From an uncultured Clostridia bacterium (GTDB lineage: Bacteria > Bacillota > Clostridia > TANB77 > CAG-508), in contig CANQSP010000002.1 of the NCBI GenBank assembly GCA_947626555.1, positions 1 to 60,677 of the forward strand: a stretch of 60,677 bases of DNA. The letters run 5' to 3'. The position numbers and the translations under genes were made by a program. Every line of letters starts with the position of its first letter. The stretch's first letter is position 1. Positions 1,241 through 51,113 of this stretch are shown here, in pieces. Under the pieces are notes generated by a model that was given only the letters and a program-made list of their open reading frames with translations, did no database searches and had not been told where the DNA came from.

Positions 1241-2404
1241 TTAGATGATAGACATTCCATTTTGTAATTTTTCAAAACCTAATTCTTTCAAAATTGTTGC
1301 TGAAATATCTGCATAAGTATCTCTTATTCCTATATTTCTTCCTTCTTTCATATTCTTGCTATACATTAAAATAGGAATATATTCTCTTGAATGATCTGTA
1401 CTAGGAGTAGATGGATCGTTTCCATGATCTGCAGTTATAATTAATAAATCATTATCTTTCAAACTATTCATTATTTCAGGCAATTTGCTATCAAAAAATT
1501 CTAATGCTTGTTTATATCCCTCTATATTATTCCTATGCCCATAAAGCATATCAAAATCTACTAGATTCGTAAAAATAAGACCAGAAGTATTCCTTTTCAA
1601 TTCCTCTAAAGTTTTTTCTATTCCGTCTTCATTTCCTTTAGTATGAATTGCCTTTGTAATTCCTCTACCCGAAAACAAATCTTCTATTTTTCCTATAGCA
1701 ATTACATCTTTTCCGTTCTCGCTTAATACATCTAACATTGTTCTTCCAAATTTGGTAGATTCAAAGTCTTTTCTATTATATGTTCTTGTAAAATTATCAC
1801 TATTAGTTCCTATAAAAGGTCTTGCTATAACAGTTCCTATATTATATTCTGGTTTGTCTAATATATTTCTTGCAATTTTGCATATTTCATACAATTTAGG
1901 TACAGGAATAACTTTTTCATGCGCAGCAATTTGAAACACACTATCGGCAGAAGTATATATTATTGGATAACCTGTTTTTATATGCTCCTCCCCAAACCTT
2001 TTTAATATTTCTGTTCCTGAACCCACTTCGTTACACAAAATTCCATTTAATCCTGTTTTATTTAAAAATTCTTCTATAAGCTCTTTAGGAAATGCATTTG
2101 GATAAGTTGTAAAAGCTGGATGTTGAATATAACCTGCTATTTCCCAATGTCCCACTGGACTATTTTTTCCATCAGACTGCTCAATGGCTTTTCCATACAT
2201 TCCTATTGGATGTTCTTCTTTTTCTTCTATGCCAATTCCCTCTATATTATATAACCCTAATTTTTTCATGTTTGGAAGTTTTAAATTTGAATTATTATAT
2301 ATTCCCCTTAAAGTATTACTTCCCTCGTCTTTATATTTGTTTGCATCTGGAAGTTCACCTACTCCAAATCCATCAAGCACAATTATAATCGCTCTATTAA
2401 TCAT
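1241..2404 (-). CDS. deoB: phosphopentomutase
   Basis: 387-aa reading from ATG 2404, with AAAGAGG SD 5 nt upstream. The track ORF begins at an upstream TTG at 2431. IIIVLDGFGVG N-terminus and ITADHGNDP metal-site motif. Confidence 0.93.
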   Translation of the reverse strand: MINRAIIIVLDGFGVGELPDANKYKDEGSNTLRGIYNNSNLKLPNMKKLGLYNIEGIGIEEKEEHPIGMYGKAIEQSDGKNSPVGHWEIAGYIQHPAFTTYPNAFPKELIEEFLNKTGLNGILCNEVGSGTEILKRFGEEHIKTGYPIIYTSADSVFQIAAHEKVIPVPKLYEICKIARNILDKPEYNIGTVIARPFIGTNSDNFTRTYNRKDFESTKFGRTMLDVLSENGKDVIAIGKIEDLFSGRGITKAIHTKGNEDGIEKTLEELKRNTSGLIFTNLVDFDMLYGHRNNIEGYKQALEFFDSKLPEIMNSLKDNDLLIITADHGNDPSTPSTDHSREYIPILMYSKNMKEGRNIGIRDTYADISATILKELGFEKLQNGMSII

Positions 2405-2433
2405 AAAAACCTCTTTTCTATAATTATTCAAAA

Positions 2434-4743
2434 TTATTTTTTTATCTGTAATGAATATTCATACATTTTTATTGTTTGAATTTTATTTTCAAATTCATTA
2501 ATTATTATATTTAACTTAAAATCTCTTCTTGCTATTAATTTTGTATCAAATTTATCAAAATTCAACAGTACATCTTTTGATATATCCATACCTAACGGAA
2601 GTGTTTTATTGTTATTATCAAAAAAGATTATATTACTATAATATATTATTGGCATTTGTTCCTTTATATTATATTTGTATAAAATAATTTCATCTTGTTT
2701 AATTTTATTTATGGCATCTTCTGGATTAATACTGCATATTTCAAATCCCTTATTTTCTGTCTCACTTGTTTTGCTATTATATACTGGCATATCATAATTT
2801 GATACAACTTTTCCATAAACTTCTTTTAATAATGTAAGATAATTTTTTATAGTTTCTTTATATTCCTCTATATCAGTTTCTAAATTTACATTTAATATTT
2901 TATATTTTTCTTTTTCAATTTCTCTATGTTTTTTATTATTTAGAAGTTTTATTTTTGTGTTATCTTCAATTACATTTCCAAATATGTCAAAATCTTTTGC
3001 TTTAATATTTTCAATATCTTCTTCATATTCTTTTTTTAATTTTTTAAGATTCTTTTCCAGTATTGTAATATCTCTTTTTAAAATTTTATCTGTATTCAAT
3101 ATTTTAAAAGCTTCTTCATCACTTTTTATTGCAAAAATTGCATCACATTCACTTTTAGAAAATATTTCTCTTTGCTTACTGTCTACTTTCTGCCCCAATT
3201 CCTCTATATCATTTTCATAGTCAAAAGCTTTCCTTAATTTATCATTATGAACGTTTTCATCATTATTTTCACTTTCTACAAGTAGTGCAACTTCATCTTT
3301 GTTCGCATATTTCCAAAAATCAAAAATACTTTTTTTATGACTTTCAATTTCATTTATATATAAAGTAGCATTCCTAATTTTTCTTTCAAGATTATCTTTT
3401 TTATTTTCTGCAGCTTTTATATCCATTTGCATATTTTTATATTTTGCTCTTTTTTCTTCTAATTTATTGCCTAAGTTTAGTAAATCTTCTATTGTATATA
3501 ATTCTTTTTCTTCAATCAATTCTTCTTCAATTTTTATTTTTTCTTTTGCATTTTCTGCATTTTCTTTACTCTTTGTACTGTCTACATTCATTGCTTTCAC
3601 TTTTTTACTGTTTTTCTTTCCTTGAAAATAATATTTCATTTTACCAAAAAAACTTTTTTTACATTCTAAAAAAGTAACTATTTGCTTTTCTTTAAAAGAA
3701 TATTCTTCATTTTGTTTTTTTATTGTTTTATTTAATAATTCTAACTTTTCAGCATCAAATAATAATTCTGTTGAAAGTTTTTCATATTCATTTTTATTTC
3801 TTATAAACTCATTTTTTAGAAAATCTGGTAAAGTACTATAATTAACTTTTTTTAACTCATAAAAAAAGTCTATTGCACCTTTTTCATTTATTACTACTTT
3901 AAATTTATATTCTTGAGGTATTTCGCTTTGTAATATAAATAAAGCTTTTATTAGTTTATATATCTCTCCTGCTTCTTTTTTGTTTGATAATTCTATTTTA
4001 TATATGCTTTTAATTTTATCATATACTTCAGTTTGCCCTATAATTTGCAAACTTGCATTATCTGCTTTATCATAAACTTCATATATTGATGGCCACGATT
4101 TAGTAAATAGCCATAAATAGTTTTCTAAATCAGCTATTTCTGATTTTTTTAAAATACCACTTGAATATTCTAAATGGCTTATAGGTACATATATTAATTC
4201 TTTTTTCTTTGATTTTTGTGATTGAATTTTTTTCTTTATAACATAAAATAAACTTTCTACACTATCTTCTCTACTTGGAAATAGCATAAAATATTTTTTA
4301 GATACTTCTGAATAAAATATTTGCCATATAAAATTTTCTTTATATTTTACTTCATATGGTATTTGCTTATTTAATTGTTCTTGTGCTTTTTCTAGTTCTT
4401 GCAATTTACCAATGTCTAATTTTTTTAACATTTCTAAAAATGATGTATATTTTTCTATACTATCAGCATTTTTTTCTATATTTTCTTCGGTTGTTATATA
4501 ATCTGCTAAATAACTTGCCTTTTTAAATTTTTGATTCAAATCATCTAGCCTGTCTGATGGAGTTACAAATATTTCTATATCTTTTATATTTACATATTTA
4601 TATATTTTATAGCTTGTGTCATCATATATTTTATCCGTTCTGAACTTTATAGCTTCCTTCTGTTTTAAACAGGCTGGTATATTTTCTATATCTAACCCAA
4701 TATATTTTAACTTTTCTTCTATTTCTTTTGTGTTTTTAGACAT
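2434..4743 (-). CDS. large K/E-rich coiled-coil protein (769 aa), unknown function
   Basis: Uninterrupted ORF. ATG 4743 lies 5 nt after AAGGAGG. It ends 29 nt before the deoB ATG, so it is probably co-transcribed. No catalytic motif recognised. Confidence 0.7.
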   Translation of the reverse strand: MSKNTKEIEEKLKYIGLDIENIPACLKQKEAIKFRTDKIYDDTSYKIYKYVNIKDIEIFVTPSDRLDDLNQKFKKASYLADYITTEENIEKNADSIEKYTSFLEMLKKLDIGKLQELEKAQEQLNKQIPYEVKYKENFIWQIFYSEVSKKYFMLFPSREDSVESLFYVIKKKIQSQKSKKKELIYVPISHLEYSSGILKKSEIADLENYLWLFTKSWPSIYEVYDKADNASLQIIGQTEVYDKIKSIYKIELSNKKEAGEIYKLIKALFILQSEIPQEYKFKVVINEKGAIDFFYELKKVNYSTLPDFLKNEFIRNKNEYEKLSTELLFDAEKLELLNKTIKKQNEEYSFKEKQIVTFLECKKSFFGKMKYYFQGKKNSKKVKAMNVDSTKSKENAENAKEKIKIEEELIEEKELYTIEDLLNLGNKLEEKRAKYKNMQMDIKAAENKKDNLERKIRNATLYINEIESHKKSIFDFWKYANKDEVALLVESENNDENVHNDKLRKAFDYENDIEELGQKVDSKQREIFSKSECDAIFAIKSDEEAFKILNTDKILKRDITILEKNLKKLKKEYEEDIENIKAKDFDIFGNVIEDNTKIKLLNNKKHREIEKEKYKILNVNLETDIEEYKETIKNYLTLLKEVYGKVVSNYDMPVYNSKTSETENKGFEICSINPEDAINKIKQDEIILYKYNIKEQMPIIYYSNIIFFDNNNKTLPLGMDISKDVLLNFDKFDTKLIARRDFKLNIIINEFENKIQTIKMYEYSLQIKK

Positions 4744-6150: not shown

Positions 6151-7542
6151 ATGGAAAATACTTTAGTAAAAGATTTATACAGAAATACAGAAAAATTTGC
6201 AGAAAAAAACGTACAAGTTTCTGGTTGGGTAAGAACAGTTAGAGACTCTAAAACATTTGGATTTATAGAATTAAATGATGGCTCTTTCTATTCTAATGTT
6301 CAAATTGTATTTGATGATAAATTAGAAAATTTTGATGAAATTTGTAAATTATCAATTAGTTCTTCTATTATTGTAGAAGGAACTGTTGTAAAAACTGAAA
6401 ATGCAAAGCAACCTTTTGAAATTAAGGCTTCAAAAGTTGAAATTTACGATTTATCTGATAGTGATTATCCTCTTCAGAAAAAAAGACATTCTTTTGAATA
6501 TTTAAGAACTATTGCACACTTACGTCCAAGGACAAATACTTTTAATGCAGTTTTTAGAGTTCGTAGTGTTTTATCTTATGCAATACACAAGTTCTTTAAC
6601 GAAAGAGGCTTTGTGTATGTTCATACACCAATTATAACAAGTAGTGACGCAGAAGGTGCAGGAGAAATGTTTAGCGTTTCTTCTATGGATTATAATAATC
6701 TTCCTAAGTGCGAAGATGGAAGTGTTGATTTTTCAAAAGATTTCTTTGGAAAAAATGCTCATCTTACTGTAAGTGGCCAATTAGACGTTGAAAACTATGC
6801 ATTTGCTTTTAGAAATGTATATACCTTTGGTCCTACTTTTAGAGCTGAAAATTCAAATACTGTAAAGCATGCTGCAGAATTTTGGATGATTGAACCTGAA
6901 ATGTGTTTTGCAGATTTAAATGACGACATGAATTTAGCAGAGGACATGATTAAATACATTATTTCATATGTATTAGAAAATGCTCCTGAAGAAATGGAAT
7001 TTTTTGATAAATTCATTGCCCCTGGATTATTAGAAAGGTTGCACCATGTTGTTAATTCTGAATTTGGAAGAATCACATATACAGATGCAATTAAAGAACT
7101 AGAAAAAAATAATGACAATTTTGAATATAAAGTATTTTGGGGAGCTGACATTCAAACTGAGCATGAAAGATATTTAAGTGAAACTGTTTTTGGAAGACCA
7201 GTATTTGTTACAGATTACCCAAAAGAAATAAAAGCATTTTATATGAAACAAAATCCTGATGGTAAAACTGTTGCTGCAACTGACCTTTTAGTACCTGGAA
7301 TTGGAGAACTAATCGGTGGTAGCCAAAGAGAAGAAGATTTAGAAAAATTAAAAACTAGAATGAAAGAATTAGGACTTAAAGAAGAAGATTACTGGTGGTA
7401 TTTAGATTTACGTCGTTTTGGTAGTAGCAAACATGCAGGTTTTGGTTTAGGTTTTGAAAGAATGATGATGTATTTAACTGGTATGCAAAATATTCGTGAT
7501 GTTATTCCTTTCCCTAGAACACCAAAAAATTGTGAATTTTAA
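6151..7542 (+). CDS. asnS: asparagine--tRNA ligase
   Basis: Class II aaRS motifs [16 protein letters not shown] and [12 protein letters not shown], plus an N-terminal OB-fold region. Start set at ATG 6151 (463 aa). The in-frame ATG at 6139 directly abuts the SD and is less likely. Confidence 0.94.
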
Positions 7543-7603
7543 ATTTTAGAAAAAATTGTAAAGTATTTATTTTAAAGTGCTTTTAGTTATAAAATTTAAT
7601 AGA

Positions 7604-7638
7604 GCCAACCTATATTTTTAAATATAAGTTGGCTTTTT
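7604..7638 (+). terminator. rho-independent terminator between convergent asnS and the methyltransferase gene
   Basis: GCCAACCTATATTT / AAATATAAGTTGGC stem followed by TTTTT. Confidence 0.75.
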
Positions 7639-7671
7639 GTTTATTTAATACTCTAAATTATATAACTCACA

Positions 7672-8460
7672 TTACAATTTTTTTCTAACATATTCATATA
7701 AAATAACACCTGTTGCAACTGCAGCATTTAGGCTTTCTGTTTTGCCAAGCATTGGAATTTTAACTTTTCTATCTGATATATCTAATATTTCCTTTGAAAC
7801 ACCATTTGCCTCATTTCCTATTACTATTGCCATTTTTTTATATTCTTTTATACTATATATAGTTTCATTCGTGTCTAAACTTGTAGAAATAACTTCAAAT
7901 TTATGCTTTTTTATATTTTTTAAAGTTTGCTCTAAATTTTCTACCTGAATAACATTTACCCTATAAATAGCACCCATAGTAGAACGTACCACTTTAGGAT
8001 TATATGCATCTACTGTTTTATTACTAACTATAACCTGCGTTAAATTTACACTATCCAAAGTTCTTAATATAGTGCCTAAATTCCCCGGGTCTTGAATTCC
8101 GTCCAATACAAGTATAATATCTTCATCATATTTAATTTGTTCTTCATTTCCTTTTTGATCTATTACTGCTAAAATTCCCTGTGGATTTGTTACATCAGAA
8201 AGCGTTTCAAATACTTTTTCTGTTACATAAACACAATCCTTCTTTGCTATTTCATACATCAAACTCTTTTTAATCATTCCGCTATTAGCACAGTCTTCAC
8301 AAATTACAATCTTCTTAATATCAGCATTTTCTTGTATAGCCTCTTCTACTAGCTTTATTCCCTCTACAATAAATTCTTTATTTAGATCTCTATATTTCTT
8401 CTCTTTTAGCTTTTTTATATTTTTAACAATTTCATTATCTTTACTTGATATTACTTGCAT
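7672..8460 (-). CDS. TrmH/SpoU-family RNA 2-prime-O-methyltransferase (RlmB-like)
   Basis: SpoU motifs LVLDGIQDPGNLGTILRT, VIGNEANGVS and ESLNAAVATGVILYE. AAGGAG SD (8468-8473) lies 7 nt before ATG 8460. Confidence 0.88.
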   Translation of the reverse strand: MQVISSKDNEIVKNIKKLKEKKYRDLNKEFIVEGIKLVEEAIQENADIKKIVICEDCANSGMIKKSLMYEIAKKDCVYVTEKVFETLSDVTNPQGILAVIDQKGNEEQIKYDEDIILVLDGIQDPGNLGTILRTLDSVNLTQVIVSNKTVDAYNPKVVRSTMGAIYRVNVIQVENLEQTLKNIKKHKFEVISTSLDTNETIYSIKEYKKMAIVIGNEANGVSKEILDISDRKVKIPMLGKTESLNAAVATGVILYEYVRKKL

Positions 8461-8471
8461 TTCTAATCTCC

Positions 8472-8606
8472 TTTAAACTATTAGGGACGGGGTTAAATAG
8501 TTTAGCTGTATTAAAACTATTCACCCTTTTTCCCTAACAGCTCTATATTATTTAAAAACTCCTTAATTTCAGCTAAACTATTTAACCCCGTCCCTAATAG
8601 TTTATA
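8472..8606. repeat. mini copy of the nested-palindrome element (outer hairpin pair only, plus one degenerate module)
   Basis: 8472-8506 TTTAAACTATTAGGGACGGGGTTAAATAGTTTAGC and 8572-8606 GCTAAACTATTTAACCCCGTCCCTAATAGTTTATA are inverted copies of the outer modules seen at 12061, 20048 and 27834. 8513-8543 looks like a decayed third module. Confidence 0.85.
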
Positions 8607-12060: not shown

Positions 12061-12404
12061 GCTAAACTATTGGGGACGGGGTTAAATAGTTTAGCACTTA
12101 CTTTATTTTTGTTAAACTATTAGGGACGGAGTTAAATAGTTTAACAACTTAATTGCTATATAGCAAAACATTAATATTATATATTTTGAAGTGATTCGTG
12201 GGGACCGTTTTAGAAAATGTTACGAACATGTGTGAGTTACATTTTCTTAAATGGGGCAACGCAAAAATATATAATATTAATGTTTTGCAAGTATTATAAT
12301 TAAAATTTAGTTAAACTATTTAACTCCGTCCCTAATAGTTTAACTGTTTCGTTATAGATTACTAATTGTGCTAAACTATTTAACCCCGTCCCCAATAGTT
12401 TAGC
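12061..12404. mobile_element. nested-palindrome element, copy A (putative non-autonomous MITE/REPIN-like element)
   Basis: Outer modules 12061-12095 and 12370-12404 are perfect 35-nt inverted repeats. Inner modules 12111-12145 and 12310-12344 are also perfect. The core has a 25-bp stem (12163-12187 with 12264-12288). No ORF over 28 codons. Confidence 0.7.
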
Positions 12405-12451
12405 ATATTTTATATTTTTTCAAATATACTTGTTATTAAGTGAGGTATTAT

Positions 12452-13525
12452 ATGAAAGCAATTTGTTATAAACCTAAATTCATTTTCCTATCTTTAAAAA
12501 GAAAAATTCTACCTTTAATATTTTGTGCTTTTACAATATTTTTAGTATTGTTCTCTAATAAAAATTTAGTTGCTGCAAAATCTGGATTATTGTTATGGGC
12601 AAATAATGTTGTACCTGCTTTACTTCCATTTTTCATTGCAACAGAATTACTTTCATATACTAATATTGTAGATAAAATAGGAAAAGTTTTAACTCCTATT
12701 ATGAGACCAATATTTAATATTCCAGGATGTGGTGCATATGCTTTTATAATGGGTATAATTAGTGGTTACCCTATTGGTGCAAAAATTGTTACAAATTTTA
12801 GAGAAAATGGTCTTTGCACAAAAGAAGAAGCAGAAAGAATGATTGCTTTTACTAATAATTCTGGCCCTCTTTTTATAATTGGAACGGTTGGAATTACGCT
12901 ATTTGGTAACAGTTTAATTGGGATTTTACTTTTTATTACTCATTTACTTGCTTGCATAAGTGTAGGCATTTGCTTTAGATTCTGGAAATCAAAAAATAAT
13001 TCTTATAAAAAGACTAATTACCATACTAATCTTGCTTCTAATACTTCATGCACTGTGCATTTATCAAATTTAGGAGAAGTACTAAGTAAAAGCATAATGT
13101 CTGCAATCAATACTGTTGTTATGATAGGTGGTTTTGTTGTACTTTTTAGTGTTATATTATCAATTCTAAATAATAGTCACATATTGACATTTATTGCTCA
13201 AATTTTTAGTCCTATCTTTAAAGTTTTTGGAATACAAGATTTTAGGTTTGTTACAGCCTTTACCTCTGGTATTATAGAATTAACAAATGGAGCTAGTTTA
13301 ATTTGTGCTATCCCATGTAAATCGATTTCTATAAACATTATAATATGCGCATTTTTATTAGGATTTGGAGGTCTTTCTATTTTGTTCCAAGTATTTAGCA
13401 TTACTGCTAAATCTGATGTCTCCATAAAACCATACATTATTGGTAAATTATTACAAGCAATATTTGCAACTATATATACAATAATTTTTATTAATTGTTT
13501 TCCTATTTTTAACTTAAATTTATAG
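12452..13525 (+). CDS. ylbJ: sporulation integral membrane protein YlbJ-like (nucleoside-recognition/Gate domains)
   Basis: Multi-pass membrane protein with segments such as GCGAYAFIMGIISGYPIGAKIV and NNSGPLFIIGTVG. ATG 12452 follows a GAGG SD. The track ORF starts at GTG 12440. Confidence 0.6.
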   Translation: MKAICYKPKFIFLSLKRKILPLIFCAFTIFLVLFSNKNLVAAKSGLLLWANNVVPALLPFFIATELLSYTNIVDKIGKVLTPIMRPIFNIPGCGAYAFIMGIISGYPIGAKIVTNFRENGLCTKEEAERMIAFTNNSGPLFIIGTVGITLFGNSLIGILLFITHLLACISVGICFRFWKSKNNSYKKTNYHTNLASNTSCTVHLSNLGEVLSKSIMSAINTVVMIGGFVVLFSVILSILNNSHILTFIAQIFSPIFKVFGIQDFRFVTAFTSGIIELTNGASLICAIPCKSISINIIICAFLLGFGGLSILFQVFSITAKSDVSIKPYIIGKLLQAIFATIYTIIFINCFPIFNLNL

Positions 13526-20044: not shown

Positions 20045-20392
20045 CTCCTTAAACTAATAGGGACGGGGTTAAATAGTTTAGCACTTATTTTATTTTTTAG
20101 TTAAACTATTAGGGACGGAGTTAAATAGTTTAACAACTTAACTGCTATATAGCAAAACATTAATATTATATATTTTGTAGTGATTCGTGGGGACCGTTTT
20201 AGAAAATGTTACGAACATGCGTGAGTTACATTTTCTTAAATGGGGCAACGCAAAAATATATAATATTAATGTTTTGCAAGTAAAATAGTTTAAATTTTGT
20301 TAAACTATTTAACTCCGTCCCTAATAGTTTAACTCTTTATAAATTACTAATTGTGCTAAACTATTTAACCCCGTCCCTATTAGTTTAAGGAG
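20045..20392. mobile_element. nested-palindrome element, copy B (termini extended to CTCCTT...AAGGAG)
   Basis: Outer modules 20048-20082 and 20355-20389 are perfect inverted repeats, and the IR extends 3 nt further on each side. Inner modules 20100-20134 and 20299-20333. Core stem 20152-20176 with 20253-20277. Confidence 0.7.
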
Positions 20393-20535: not shown

Positions 20536-22221
20536 ATGCAATTCGTTACTAATCATCTTTGGGTAATTATAGTTATTGCGGCAATTATTGGAATCATAAT
20601 TTTTCTGGCTGCAATCTACAAAGTTGCTGATATTGACAAGGCACTGATAATCACTGGTGGCAAGGAACCTGTTATCAAGGTATCTGGGGGCTCGTTTGTC
20701 ATCCCTATTTTCCGCAAAGCAAGCTACTTTGATTTATGTATGCTTACTGTACGAGCAGATAAGGATGAAATTAAGACCTGTACCGCTGTGCCTATTGTTG
20801 CTGACTGGACTGCTCAAATTCGCCCTTGTGTTAACGATGAAACTAAACTTCGTACAGCAATTATTTCCTTTAAGGAACGAGGTAATGATGGTATTATTGC
20901 GGATGTTAAGCTCACTCTTATGGGTGCTGTGCGTGATGTTGTTGCCTCTATGACTCCTGAAGCAATTTTGAATAACAAAGAAGCTTTTAAACAGGAAATT
21001 CAGAAAAGCGTTGCTGATGAAATGGATAATATGGGCCTTGAGCTTGTATCTCTAAACATTCAGGATGTTTCTGATAGTAACGGCTACTATGACAACATTG
21101 CTGCTTTGGATTCAGCTGAAAAGCGTAAAGCTGCTGAAATTAAGCATGCAGAAGTTGACCAAGTAACTCGCGAAAAGAAGGCAGAAGCAACTAGAGCTGC
21201 TGAAATTGCCGAGGCAACAGCTAAGAAGGAAACCGAGATTTCCAAGATGGAGGCAGAGCTTGCCGAGAAGGAAAAGCGCAAAGATACCGACATGAAACTC
21301 GCAGAATTCAAAATTGCAACAGAAACCGCCAACGCAGATGCTGACGTTGCTGGAGAACTGCAGAAAACTCTTCGCGAACGTGAAGTCGAGGAACGTAAGG
21401 GTGCTGTTGCTGTTATGAAGGCAGAGCAGGAAAACCTTGCAGCTCAAAAAGAGCGTGAAGTTATGATTACACGTGCAGAAGCTGATAAGGCGACTAAGCT
21501 TGTTAATGCAGAAGCAGATGCAAACGTTCAGGCTATTCAGGCAGATGCCCAAATAAAAGTTGCCGAGCGTAAGGCTGATGCAGCGCGTAAAGAAGCCCAA
21601 GGTAATGCTGACGTTGAAACTATTGCAGCTGAGGCTCGTGTAAACGTTGCCGATCGCGACGCTGAAGCAGTTAAGAAGTCTGCTTTTGCACAAGCTGAAA
21701 AGACTCGTGCCGAAGGTCTTGCCGAAGCTGAGGTTTCCAAGCAAAAGGCTCTTGCTGAAGCTGAAGGTAAAAAAGCTGCTCTCTTAGCTGAAGCAGAAGG
21801 TTTAAAAGCTCAGCAACTTGCTGAAGCTGAAGGTATCAAAGCCAAGAAGCTTGCAGAAGCTGAAGGTGAAAAATCCCTTGCAGAAGCACGTGCAGCAAAT
21901 GAAAAAGTCAATTTCGAGATTGAGAAACTCAAGATTCAAACTGATGCTCAAGTAAGAATAGCCACTTCTACTGCTGAAATTATGGCAAATATTGGGCAAA
22001 ATGCCGAATTCGTCAATATCGGCGGTGGAAATGTTCCTTGTCCTACAGGTACAAGTGGAACAGGTAATGTTTTACTTGACACCATAATGCAGATGCCTGC
22101 ATTGATGAAGACTCTTAACATCCAGAATGAGGCACTCAATGGTCGGCCTGTTACAGAAGAAATCAAAAACATTTCTGATGCAGCCCTTTCTGGCTTGGGA
22201 GCACTAAAAAAAGAGTCATAA
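20536..22221 (+). CDS. flotillin-family protein (SPFH/Band 7 domain plus long Ala/Glu-rich coiled coil)
   Basis: ATG 20536 lies 5 nt after AAGGAGG. N-terminal TM helix, SPFH region (IITGGKEPV...FVIPIFRKASYFDL...) and EA-rich repeats (AEAEGKKAALLAEAEGLKAQQLAEAEGIKAKKLAEAEGEK). G+C is far above its neighbours. Confidence 0.85.
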   Translation: MQFVTNHLWVIIVIAAIIGIIIFLAAIYKVADIDKALIITGGKEPVIKVSGGSFVIPIFRKASYFDLCMLTVRADKDEIKTCTAVPIVADWTAQIRPCVNDETKLRTAIISFKERGNDGIIADVKLTLMGAVRDVVASMTPEAILNNKEAFKQEIQKSVADEMDNMGLELVSLNIQDVSDSNGYYDNIAALDSAEKRKAAEIKHAEVDQVTREKKAEATRAAEIAEATAKKETEISKMEAELAEKEKRKDTDMKLAEFKIATETANADADVAGELQKTLREREVEERKGAVAVMKAEQENLAAQKEREVMITRAEADKATKLVNAEADANVQAIQADAQIKVAERKADAARKEAQGNADVETIAAEARVNVADRDAEAVKKSAFAQAEKTRAEGLAEAEVSKQKALAEAEGKKAALLAEAEGLKAQQLAEAEGIKAKKLAEAEGEKSLAEARAANEKVNFEIEKLKIQTDAQVRIATSTAEIMANIGQNAEFVNIGGGNVPCPTGTSGTGNVLLDTIMQMPALMKTLNIQNEALNGRPVTEEIKNISDAALSGLGALKKES

Positions 22222-27833: not shown

Positions 27834-28179
27834 GCTAAACTATTAGGGACGGGGTTAAATAGTTTAGCACTAAGCTATTTCTTAAGTTAAACTATTAGGG
27901 ACGGAGTTAAATAGTTTAACAACTTAATTGTTATATAGCAAAACATTAATATTATATATTTTGTAGTGATTCGTGGGGACCGTTTTAGAAAATGTTACGA
28001 ACGTATGTGAGTTACATTTTCTTAAATGGGGCAACGCAAAAATATATAATATTCATGTTTTGCAAATAATATAAATAAAATTTTCTTAAACTATTTAACT
28101 CCGTCCCTAATAGTTTAACTGTTACTTTGCAAATTACTAATTGTGCTAAACTATTTAACCCCGTCCCTAATAGTTTAGC
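27834..28179. mobile_element. nested-palindrome element, copy C (inside the acc/fab operon)
   Basis: Outer modules 27834-27868 and 28145-28179 are perfect inverted repeats. Inner modules 27886-27920 and 28085-28119. Core stem 27938-27962 with 28039-28063 (one mismatch). Confidence 0.7.
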
Positions 28180-35630: not shown

Positions 35631-35705
35631 AACACGGACTTTTGCGTTTGATTTTCAAGCAACAGTTGCTTAATGATTTGAAAATCGAACACCAAGGTCC
35701 GCGTT
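35631..35705. repeat. long imperfect inverted repeat (28-nt arms)
   Basis: AACACGGACTTTTGCGTTTGATTTTCAA (35631-35658) versus TTGAAAATCGAACACCAAGGTCCGCGTT (35678-35705). 23 Watson-Crick pairs and 2 G-U out of 28 positions. Confidence 0.7.
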
Positions 35706-35845
35706 AAAATTTCATTTTGTAACCCAAATTTCCCATCTTTAAAATTTATTTTTGTAACTCAAGGTCTACGCCTTTAAAATTTATTTCTATAAATCAAGTT
35801 CCCCGTCTTCAAAATTTATTTTTTTACTCAAGGTTCTTCCTTTAT
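35706..35845. repeat. four exact-period 35-bp tandem repeats (AAAATTTATTTTTGTAACTCAAGGTCnnCGCCTTT-like)
   Basis: Units start at 35706, 35741, 35776 and 35811. The right arm of the preceding hairpin resembles a fifth unit. Confidence 0.75.
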
Positions 35846-50471: not shown

Positions 50472-51113
50472 TTATTTCTTGCCTGTATTTCCCCATAAAC
50501 CAGTTTGAGTATTAGTTTTTGATGTATTTGTACTATTTTTTGATTCTTCATTTGTGTTTGTTTTATCGTTAGTTGTTGAATTTGTTTTATCATCTTCCTC
50601 TTTATCTGTAGTATTTGACTTGTCACTTGTATTTGTTTTGTTGTTTTTATCACTTTCACTGTCATCGTTAACCGTGTTTGTTTTGTCCTTTGTAGTTGTG
50701 TTAGTTTTGTCTTTTGACGTTGTATTAGTCTTGTCTTTTGATGTTGTATTTGTTTTCTCGCTTTCTGTATTAGTCTTATCCCCTGTAGTTGAATTTGTTT
50801 TTTCTTCATCTTCCTCGTCACTATTTTCTTCTTCTACTAGAAATGGATTAATTTTCCCAGCAACATAAGATTTGTCTTTCTTATATTTTTCCAAATCAGA
50901 ACCATCAATTTTATAAGTCATACTTGTTTCTTCCAGTTCAGTAACTTCTTCTGAAACTTCATTTTTTATTCCTTCAGGCGTTGAATATGCTACTCTATTA
51001 GGAACTATTTTATTTATTGGATTATAATCATAAAATATAATAGATAACACTAAAATTACTGCTACAAATAATAATAGTGAAACTCCAATTTCTTTTAATA
51101 CAGATTTAAACAT
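50472..51113 (-). CDS. membrane-anchored protein with T/K/D/N-rich repeat tail (213 aa)
   Basis: N-terminal TM helix. 24-nt DNA repeats at 50674-50769 encode (S/T)KDKTNTT units. Inside the pilus operon. Confidence 0.6.
   Translation of the reverse strand: MFKSVLKEIGVSLLLFVAVILVLSIIFYDYNPINKIVPNRVAYSTPEGIKNEVSEEVTELEETSMTYKIDGSDLEKYKKDKSYVAGKINPFLVEEENSDEEDEEKTNSTTGDKTNTESEKTNTTSKDKTNTTSKDKTNTTTKDKTNTVNDDSESDKNNKTNTSDKSNTTDKEEDDKTNSTTNDKTNTNEESKNSTNTSKTNTQTGLWGNTGKK

Follow-up and report, generated by a model that had tools for sequence, protein, structure and literature searches.

A dispersed family of nested palindromic elements in gut Clostridia and its association with a RAYT-like Y1/HUH transposase that has a C-terminal HTH domain

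The window analysed here is a 60,677-nt stretch of DNA from an uncultured Clostridia bacterium (contig CANQSP010000002.1) that harbors several long palindromes. We propose that these palindromes are non-autonomous elements of the REPIN/TIR type, tied to a single-copy, vertically inherited RAYT-family Y1/HUH transposase of the TIRYT/subclass 2.1 type with a C-terminal HTH domain, and we assign to this reading a probability of about 0.78. The elements are built from hairpin modules whose arms co-vary, they are dispersed in related genomes, and they lack target duplications; the enzyme is under purifying selection, and its association with the modules is both physical and phylogenetic. That the Y1 enzyme mobilises the elements is suggested by this physical association, by the conservation of a motif across lineages, by the co-occurrence of gene and repeat, and by homology. 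Catalysis on the modules, the strand and site of cleavage, and current mobility would follow by analogy with related enzymes. The leading interpretation of the original prediction, a dispersed palindrome of the REPIN/BIME, IS200-derived or MITE type, is supported, the family being indeed dispersed in related genomes.

The 35-nt module consists of an 11-bp AT-rich palindromic stem and an asymmetric 13-nt G-rich loop (AGGGACGGGGTTA), and a single module hairpin, folded as DNA, has a predicted energy of -7.2 kcal/mol. The 21-nt pattern GGGACGGRGTTAAATAGTTTA occurred 14 times in the window with 0 mismatches, where 0.00 occurrences were expected from 100 shuffles, and these 14 modules make up three four-module elements of 342-346 bp and one two-module element of 135 bp. 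The positions given for the four copies in the original prediction, as well as the nested layout of inverted modules, were confirmed in the sequence, with the left and right modules of the window elements being exact reverse complements of each other. The features, with their coordinates in the window and their strand, are:

12061-12404, no strand: full four-module element, copy 1, between the divergent mfd and ylbJ-like genes
12061-12095, plus strand: outer-left module of copy 1, 35 nt, GCTAAACTATT-GGGGACGGGGTTA-AATAGTTTAGC
12111-12145, plus strand: inner-left module of copy 1, with the GGAG loop variant
12163-12288, plus strand: interior hairpin of copy 1 ("core A"), with arms at 12163-12188 and 12262-12288 (26/27 nt)
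12310-12344, minus strand: inner-right module of copy 1, reverse complement of the inner-left module
12370-12404, minus strand: outer-right module of copy 1, exact reverse complement of the outer-left module, including a rare G at module position 12
20048-20389, no strand: full element, copy 2, with modules at 20048-20082, 20100-20134, 20299-20333 and 20355-20389
27834-28179, no strand: full element, copy 3, with modules at 27834-27868, 27886-27920, 28085-28119 and 28145-28179
28175-28177, minus strand: stop codon TAA of accB, formed by positions 3-5 of copy 3's outer-right module
8472-8606, no strand: two-module (mini) element, flanked by mfd and the SpoU methylase gene, with modules at 8472-8506 and 8572-8606
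8520-8606, minus strand: last 29 codons of mfd (YKLLGTGLNSLAEIKEFLNNIELLGKKGE), read from the one stop-free frame of the mini element

When the three full copies were aligned, flanks included, their mean column identity was 91%, and the interior was nearly invariant. For the whole of copy 1, folding of either strand is predicted to give a single long hairpin (about -175 and -163 kcal/mol, z about -21). Between the inner modules lie 164 nt, and not the ~145 nt given earlier for this central segment; they form a hairpin of their own, core A, whose asymmetric centre of 73 nt (12189-12261) carries GTGGGGACCG and ATGGGGCAACG on one strand. The polarity of this centre is equal in all three full copies of the window, and hence the earlier claim of a common orientation for all copies is true of the asymmetric centre; for the modules it is trivial, because a convergent doublet reads alike on both strands and only the asymmetric centre gives polarity. 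The interior had also been taken for a conserved structured core: core A is shared by ~18 elements, with 87-96% identity to window copy 1, but it is the interior of one subfamily, the others having a different or deleted interior.

Other features of the window were also recorded. A 35-nt tandem repeat (3.7 copies, 76% match, consensus TTAAAATTTATTTTTGTAACTCAAGTTCCCCGTCT) occupies 35704-35832, between convergent genes, and is unrelated to the modules, and two in-frame coding repeats were found, one with a 33-nt period at 21718-21873 in the SPFH/Band-7 gene, and the other with a 24-nt period at 50553-50804, on the minus strand, in an ORF near 50.5 kb. The best-matching Pfam families of the window (the best 25 of 70 families) are housekeeping ones. 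At the gathering score, the sole Rfam match in the window was to 16S rRNA at 1-396, which is the 5′ part of a minus-strand 16S rRNA gene truncated by the window's edge (RF00177, 288 bits), and at E ≤1 only chance-level fragments of microRNA hairpins and tmRNA were matched, those in core A being of the microRNA-hairpin kind, so that the elements have no hit to an annotated RNA family.

A module scan across 185,579 species' genomes listed at least 79 loci in related MAGs, and thus further copies exist elsewhere, as a dispersed family rather than a local duplication would have them. Among the matches listed, the module was present only in rabbit-gut "uncultured Clostridia bacterium" MAGs, i.e., Lapin-007_bin5 (CANQDO), Lapin-008_bin42 (CANQRI) and Lapin-032_bin34. 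Over shared genes, the window genome is ~95% identical to CANQDO and 78-89% identical to CANQRI. Counting outermost elements, there are at least 47 in 350 kb of CANQDO and at least 31 in 218 kb of CANQRI, where these copy numbers, like the single-copy status of the enzyme gene described below, refer to MAG contigs and hence to partial genomes. Many modules sit at contig ends, and the repeat family breaks MAG assemblies. The orientations of neighbouring modules were +- in 86 cases, ++ in 24, -- in 25 and -+ in 1; that is, modules are almost always found in convergent doublets, which span 72-346 bp and have variable interiors. The smallest element is made of two modules placed head to head (72-73 bp), and the further size classes are 108-147, 187-278 and 342-346 bp. 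A BLAST search with the 344-bp element returned no match in plasmids and only 41-nt AT-rich chance matches in phages, namely those of Staphylococcus; the module pattern had 0 matches in viral contigs, and in the literature the loop sequence matched only unrelated eukaryotic papers.

We then consider how the elements end and how they vary. No excess of direct repeats that would account for a target duplication of ≥3 bp was observed at any of five boundary definitions. The dinucleotide T3-A4 is invariant at both element ends, which is compatible with a 2-bp TA duplication. In 108 doublets the mean arm-to-arm mismatch was 0.75 per 35 nt, and 254 deviations from the consensus were shared by both arms, as opposed to 81 that were unshared. 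The variable module positions (10-12, 34-35 and often 1-2) carry the equal base in both arms, and the variation in the outer stem occurs without compensation inside the single module. Since the arms co-vary and there is no compensation within the module, it is the long hairpin, and not the module hairpin, that is maintained.

All the orthologous sites that could be recovered were occupied, so that what had been conceived as a comparison of filled and empty sites became a comparison of filled sites with differing contents; the loci had been fetched because they bear modules, and it is this biased ascertainment that accounts for finding only filled ones. The contents differed by the presence of nested or simple forms, by internal deletions, by short scars left at the ends by a lost outer module, and by other interiors. 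At the mfd-ylbJ site, for instance, core A is found in the 344-bp four-module form of the window and in the two-module form of CANQRI, which measures 234 bp, and the two-module form of CANQDO (272 bp) has another interior. The mini element is kept at the orthologous site in both related MAGs. Furthermore, with identical flanks as the reference, the central 90 nt had the opposite orientation in 4 of 11 orthologous pairs, and in another 4 they were syntenic. The inverted pairs are window 20048-20389 with L047:4575-4814, L013:2734-2968 with L017:4292-4525 (the centres of which are 99% identical once inverted), L024:1900 with L032:2281, and L005:4047 with L053:1452. Short duplications of the terminal stem (TAAACTAT directly followed by TAAACTAT, or TAATAGTTTAGC twice) were seen in L012:6593-6706, L004:6999-7121 and L068:6091-6213, and the comparison of the first of these with its nested orthologue L067 suggests that the terminal duplication in L012 may be the scar of a collapsed outer module. 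Long palindromes are expected to undergo templated correction of one arm by the other, slippage between direct repeats, and inversion of the loop. The arm co-variation, content changes and flips reported here fit such palindrome dynamics, and they are also compatible with an enzyme-mediated exchange.

No transposase gene had been noticed in the window, and tblastn with the enzyme described here agreed with this, in that a single match was obtained in ~640 kb (the 79 loci plus the window) and no Y1 transposase is encoded in the window. The association of the enzyme with the modules was therefore seen in related genomes and not in the window's own sequence. The search for a RAYT/IS200-type Y1 gene flanked by the same hairpins, as the original prediction had anticipated, was successful in three related lineages. 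In CANQDO, a pair of modules without near partners encloses a 252-aa ORF (L057:5109-5867), and this Y1 enzyme is the only gene seen between modules that are more than 600 nt apart, within the partial genome coverage available. The protein matches Y1_Tnp (PF01797) with 51 bits, the cut-off being 23. In NCBIfam it scores best against the model of the REP-associated tyrosine transposase, with 66.6 bits, which lies below the equivalog cut-off of 80, whereas the IS200 model gives 25 bits; all 41 members of the clade likewise match the RAYT model best. Residues H60, H62 and the tyrosine Y121 of the YIHxNP motif are invariant across the 41 homologues. The AlphaFold model (pLDDT 86.7) has its best fold match in 4er8, the E. 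coli TnpA_REP with a REP hairpin (E 3e-6, TM 0.71), followed by the IS608 and ISDra2 transposases. In addition, there is a C-terminal helical domain of ~100 aa, of which residues 188-251 are modelled with confidence, and in which several clade members match HTH_24, Sigma70_r4 and HTH_3. The gene lies between fhs and groES, and the synteny fhs-RAYT-groES-groEL is found in CANQDO, CANQRI and a third lineage, with a + module upstream and a - module downstream (L057, L080-L082 and L092). Relative to the CANQDO protein, the enzyme is 93.7% identical in CANQRI and 85% identical in the third lineage, and the dN/dS of 0.06-0.12 indicates purifying selection.

The link between enzyme and modules extends to distant homologues. 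In other Clostridia MAGs, genes for homologues that are 39-46% identical are flanked by inverted sequences with a GGGAC(G/A) motif (AGGGACGGGGGTA in L084, CAGGGACGGGGTTC in L085, GGGGACAGTCTTA in L091, and AGGGACGTT/AGGGACAC in L090), and in L084 and L091 these flanks are hairpins of a stem-loop-stem design like that of the modules, with different stems. No dispersed copies were found in the 20-kb context of two distant-homologue genomes. The motif is otherwise rare in those genomes, and its presence on both sides of such divergent homologues argues against a link that arose by chance in a genome full of repeats. A GGGAC loop motif common to enzymes with 39-46% identity, while the stems differ, is a concrete candidate for the recognition determinant. 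Closer to the window, the sister lineage L093, which has an 85% identical Fhs and the same gene order, carries a different gene between fhs and groES; with no RAYT at this locus, 0 modules were detected in 17.7 kb. Relatives at 70-79% identity also showed no modules (L088 and L089 for the ylbJ-like gene, and L094 for Fhs), and a metagenome scan for ylbJ-like relatives yielded one incomplete locus.

The placement of the elements relative to genes was also analysed. For the 70 elements with two called neighbours, the arrangement was tandem in 48, convergent in 12 and divergent in 10, and no element was wholly within a long ORF. An ORF of ≥80 codons enters 67 element ends, and at 39 of them it stops at the module's TAA (positions 3-5), with ~14 of the remaining ends stopping in a second frame and ~9 being read through, although these counts (L001-L079) are inflated by orthologous duplicates. 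That the module TAA serves as the upstream stop may point to a preferred target, or else to strong selection for 3′ spacers of zero length. Many of the opposite element ends lie 8-27 nt from a start codon, abutting the ribosome-binding site. Copy 3 takes up exactly the space between accB and fabZ, reaching from the stop codon of the former to the ribosome-binding site of the latter, and copy 2 is neighboured by the SPFH gene and, on its other side, by an 80-aa ORF with a ribosome-binding site that directly adjoins the element's left end. The elements had been called non-coding, which does not hold for the mini copy, whose right part encodes the last 29 mfd codons; this 29-aa Mfd tail is kept in three genomes (also L060:957-1090 and L055:822-968). 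The modules thus supply stop codons and a 29-aa tail to real genes.

Some of these gene contexts have features of their own. A solo module is located between groES and groEL in three lineages (L057:6426-6460, L080 about 7513-7547, and L092 about 4418-4452), and its final nucleotides merge into the groEL ribosome-binding site, which reads TAGGAGG in L057 and L080. To the right of copy 1, the sequence at 12404-12452 resembles, by eye, the consensus of sigma-E-type promoters (GCATATT, 14 nt, ATATACTT); it is directly upstream of the sporulation gene ylbJ, and the GC of its -35-like part would be the last two bases of the module. In the CANQDO locus L055, two extra genes (positions 1763-4186; 316 aa, Tim44-like by annotation, and 408 aa) are present between the SpoU methylase gene and asnS. 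This 2.4-kb segment, which is absent at window 7542-7678, was considered as a mobile element and rejected, given that it consists of two ordinary genes and that its edges have no modules.

The TnpA of IS200/IS605 and the TnpA_REP of E. coli can serve as models for a proposed mechanism. The unit of the elements is a convergent doublet of the 35-nt hairpin module, a doublet that may or may not enclose an interior and that in some cases lies within a second one. The enzyme would recognise the module as a single-stranded DNA hairpin, with the GGGAC-containing loop as the likely determinant; single strands would be cut and rejoined at replication forks, and doublets might in this way be moved or exchanged without target duplication. 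The long palindrome would then evolve as its arms correct each other, its modules collapse or are duplicated, and its centre flips.

Alternatively, the elements could be conventional MITEs moved in trans by a DDE transposase (e.g., of the IS630/mariner type, with a TA duplication), the modules then being double-stranded terminal inverted repeats. Small, non-coding elements with terminal inverted repeats, many copies and variable interiors are what such a model predicts, and the invariant T3-A4 at both ends fits a TA duplication. There is, however, no duplication of ≥3 bp, in ~640 kb no module-bounded transposase was seen except the Y1 gene, and this sole module-bounded gene encodes a RAYT-like HUH enzyme, the distant homologues of which carry the same loop motif at their ends, so that we regard the DDE model as very unlikely. 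We consider it equally improbable that the elements are at root structured RNAs selected by the host, that is, intercistronic mRNA hairpins kept for a function in processing, stabilisation or attenuation. The very stable predicted hairpins, the precise placement from stop codon to ribosome-binding site in accB-fabZ, mfd-spoU and groES-groEL, and the occupancy of the same sites across lineages with dS 0.4-0.66 would all suit such a role, but no Rfam family is matched, both strands fold equally well, and no specific RNA is conserved, because orthologous sites show different, missing or flipped interiors. Moreover, an RNA function explains the retention of the copies, and neither their origin nor the link to the RAYT, and it is compatible with the transposase-linked reading as a secondary effect.

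Least credible to us, if only slightly so, is that the elements are invertible DNA switches for phase variation, in which the modules would serve as recombination sites and the centre would be flipped to control the neighbours. The inversion of the centre in 4/11 orthologous pairs, with 4 others syntenic, and the 99% identity of the L013 and L017 centres once inverted are what a switch would leave behind, and two of the four window copies are between divergent genes. However, promoter-like sites in copy 1 were no commoner than in shuffles (5 vs 4.2), the best of them (12036-12008, for mfd) lies just outside the element, and a scan detected no terminator-like site inside copy 1. Among the best 25 of the 70 Pfam families of the window there was no recombinase; the elements are present in very many copies, and a large number of these are inside operons, from stop codon to ribosome-binding site. 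The original prediction had raised the orientation of the copies relative to replication: the asymmetric centre was aligned with the local GC skew in 11/18 cases, i.e., without bias. In quasipalindromes, loop inversion arises from recombination or template switching, and in a long palindrome such as this it is expected from these processes alone. Core sites for a tyrosine or serine recombinase were considered separately and dropped, since the asymmetric spacer is 13 nt long and no recombinase was seen among those best-matching families; the spacers of tyrosine-recombinase core sites are typically 6-8 bp. Elements of this kind could be misannotated as RNA genes or as switches.

The reading that we prefer, non-autonomous elements tied to the RAYT-family enzyme, can be carried further, although at a level that we judge unlikely. 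In a gut clostridial lineage with a small genome, a domesticated RAYT bearing an HTH might maintain >100 palindromes in operon slots that run from the stop codon to the ribosome-binding site (groES-groEL, accB-fabZ and mfd-spoU), exchanging and flipping their contents, with recognition of the loop instead of the proteobacterial GTAG foot. If true, this would amount to a genome-wide, enzyme-driven exchange and inversion of intercistronic cassettes with regulatory consequences, and hence to more than selfish DNA.

Among the known systems, REPIN-RAYT (P. fluorescens SBW25, and the E. coli REP/BIME with TnpA_REP, 4ER8) resembles the window family in having inverted hairpin doublets that form one long hairpin, in its high copy number, mostly extragenic location and compensated arm variation, and in the single-copy, vertically inherited Y1/HUH gene that is flanked by the same units; the N-terminal fold of the enzyme described here matches 4ER8 best. 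Compensatory changes on both sides of the hairpin are likewise common in REPINs (PMC3116915). There are also clear differences. The module (GCTAAACTATTAGGGACGGGGTTAAATAGTTTAGC) has no 5′ GTAG, and CGTC occurs only in the loop on the complementary strand; since the defining GTAG tag is absent, the modules are not filed as classical REPs and are placed under RAYT/TIRYT-associated repeats. The 13-nt G-rich loop is conserved here while the AT-rich stems differ between lineages, interiors reach ~190 nt, nested four-module forms are common, the enzyme has an extra C-terminal HTH domain of ~100 aa, and the host is a low-GC clostridial bacterium and not a proteobacterium. With IS200/IS605 the window system shares the Y1/HUH enzyme family, the hairpin ends and the lack of target duplication, but the ends of those elements are two different hairpins on the same strand, in contrast to the symmetric reverse complements seen here. 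Bacterial MITEs (Correia/NEMIS, RUP) and the Rickettsia palindromic elements are, like the window family, small, non-coding inverted-repeat elements found near or inside genes, and the Rickettsia elements, as the mini copy does with the Mfd tail, contribute in-frame codons to a protein. The MITEs just named, however, are credited to DDE transposases with target duplications, and here there is neither such a partner nor such a duplication.

The original prediction did not recognise the sequence as a named family. This kind of element has nevertheless been described, as REPIN-RAYT and, in the available text of the TIR paper, as TIRYT/TIRtron (PMC3116915, PMC3733652, PMC6006769). In that text, Di Nocera et al. 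(2013) present TIRYT/TIRtron as RAYT-like genes flanked by long inverted repeats that share GGGGWSAS, and some of the TIRs are self-complementary and occur as dimers or clusters, the families being described as "moderately abundant" (PMC3733652). Quentin et al. (2018) equate the TIRYT class with TnpA_Y1 subclass 2.1, which has a C-terminal HTH, and report no REP-like sequences beside subclass 2.1 genes (PMC6006769). According to Bertels et al., Group 1 RAYTs occur in Clostridia with a weak repeat association (PMC5581495). In anatomy and gene association, the window system appears closer to the TIRYT/TIRtron class than to REPIN-RAYT. In each case the RAYT-like enzyme is extended by a C-terminal HTH, and the motif GGGGWSAS, as given in the available text, is matched exactly by the flank of the L091 homologue (GGGGACAG) and at 6-7 of 8 positions by the (A/G)GGGACGG of the window family. 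It differs in that the published examples named in the same text (e.g., Stenotrophomonas and Koribacter) are not Firmicutes, and in that the population is here dense and REPIN-like, with nested and interior-bearing forms. Three points go beyond the literature searched: the dense clostridial expansion, the hairpin design, in which the loop is conserved and the stems vary, and the existence of nested forms and of forms with an interior.

To our knowledge, REPIN-RAYT systems have been studied almost only in Proteobacteria. This clostridial lineage offers a dense and analysable repeat population that is tied to the HTH-bearing RAYT subclass, and for the REPIN specialist a clostridial, HTH-bearing and loop-tagged system should be useful, while being unsurprising in kind.
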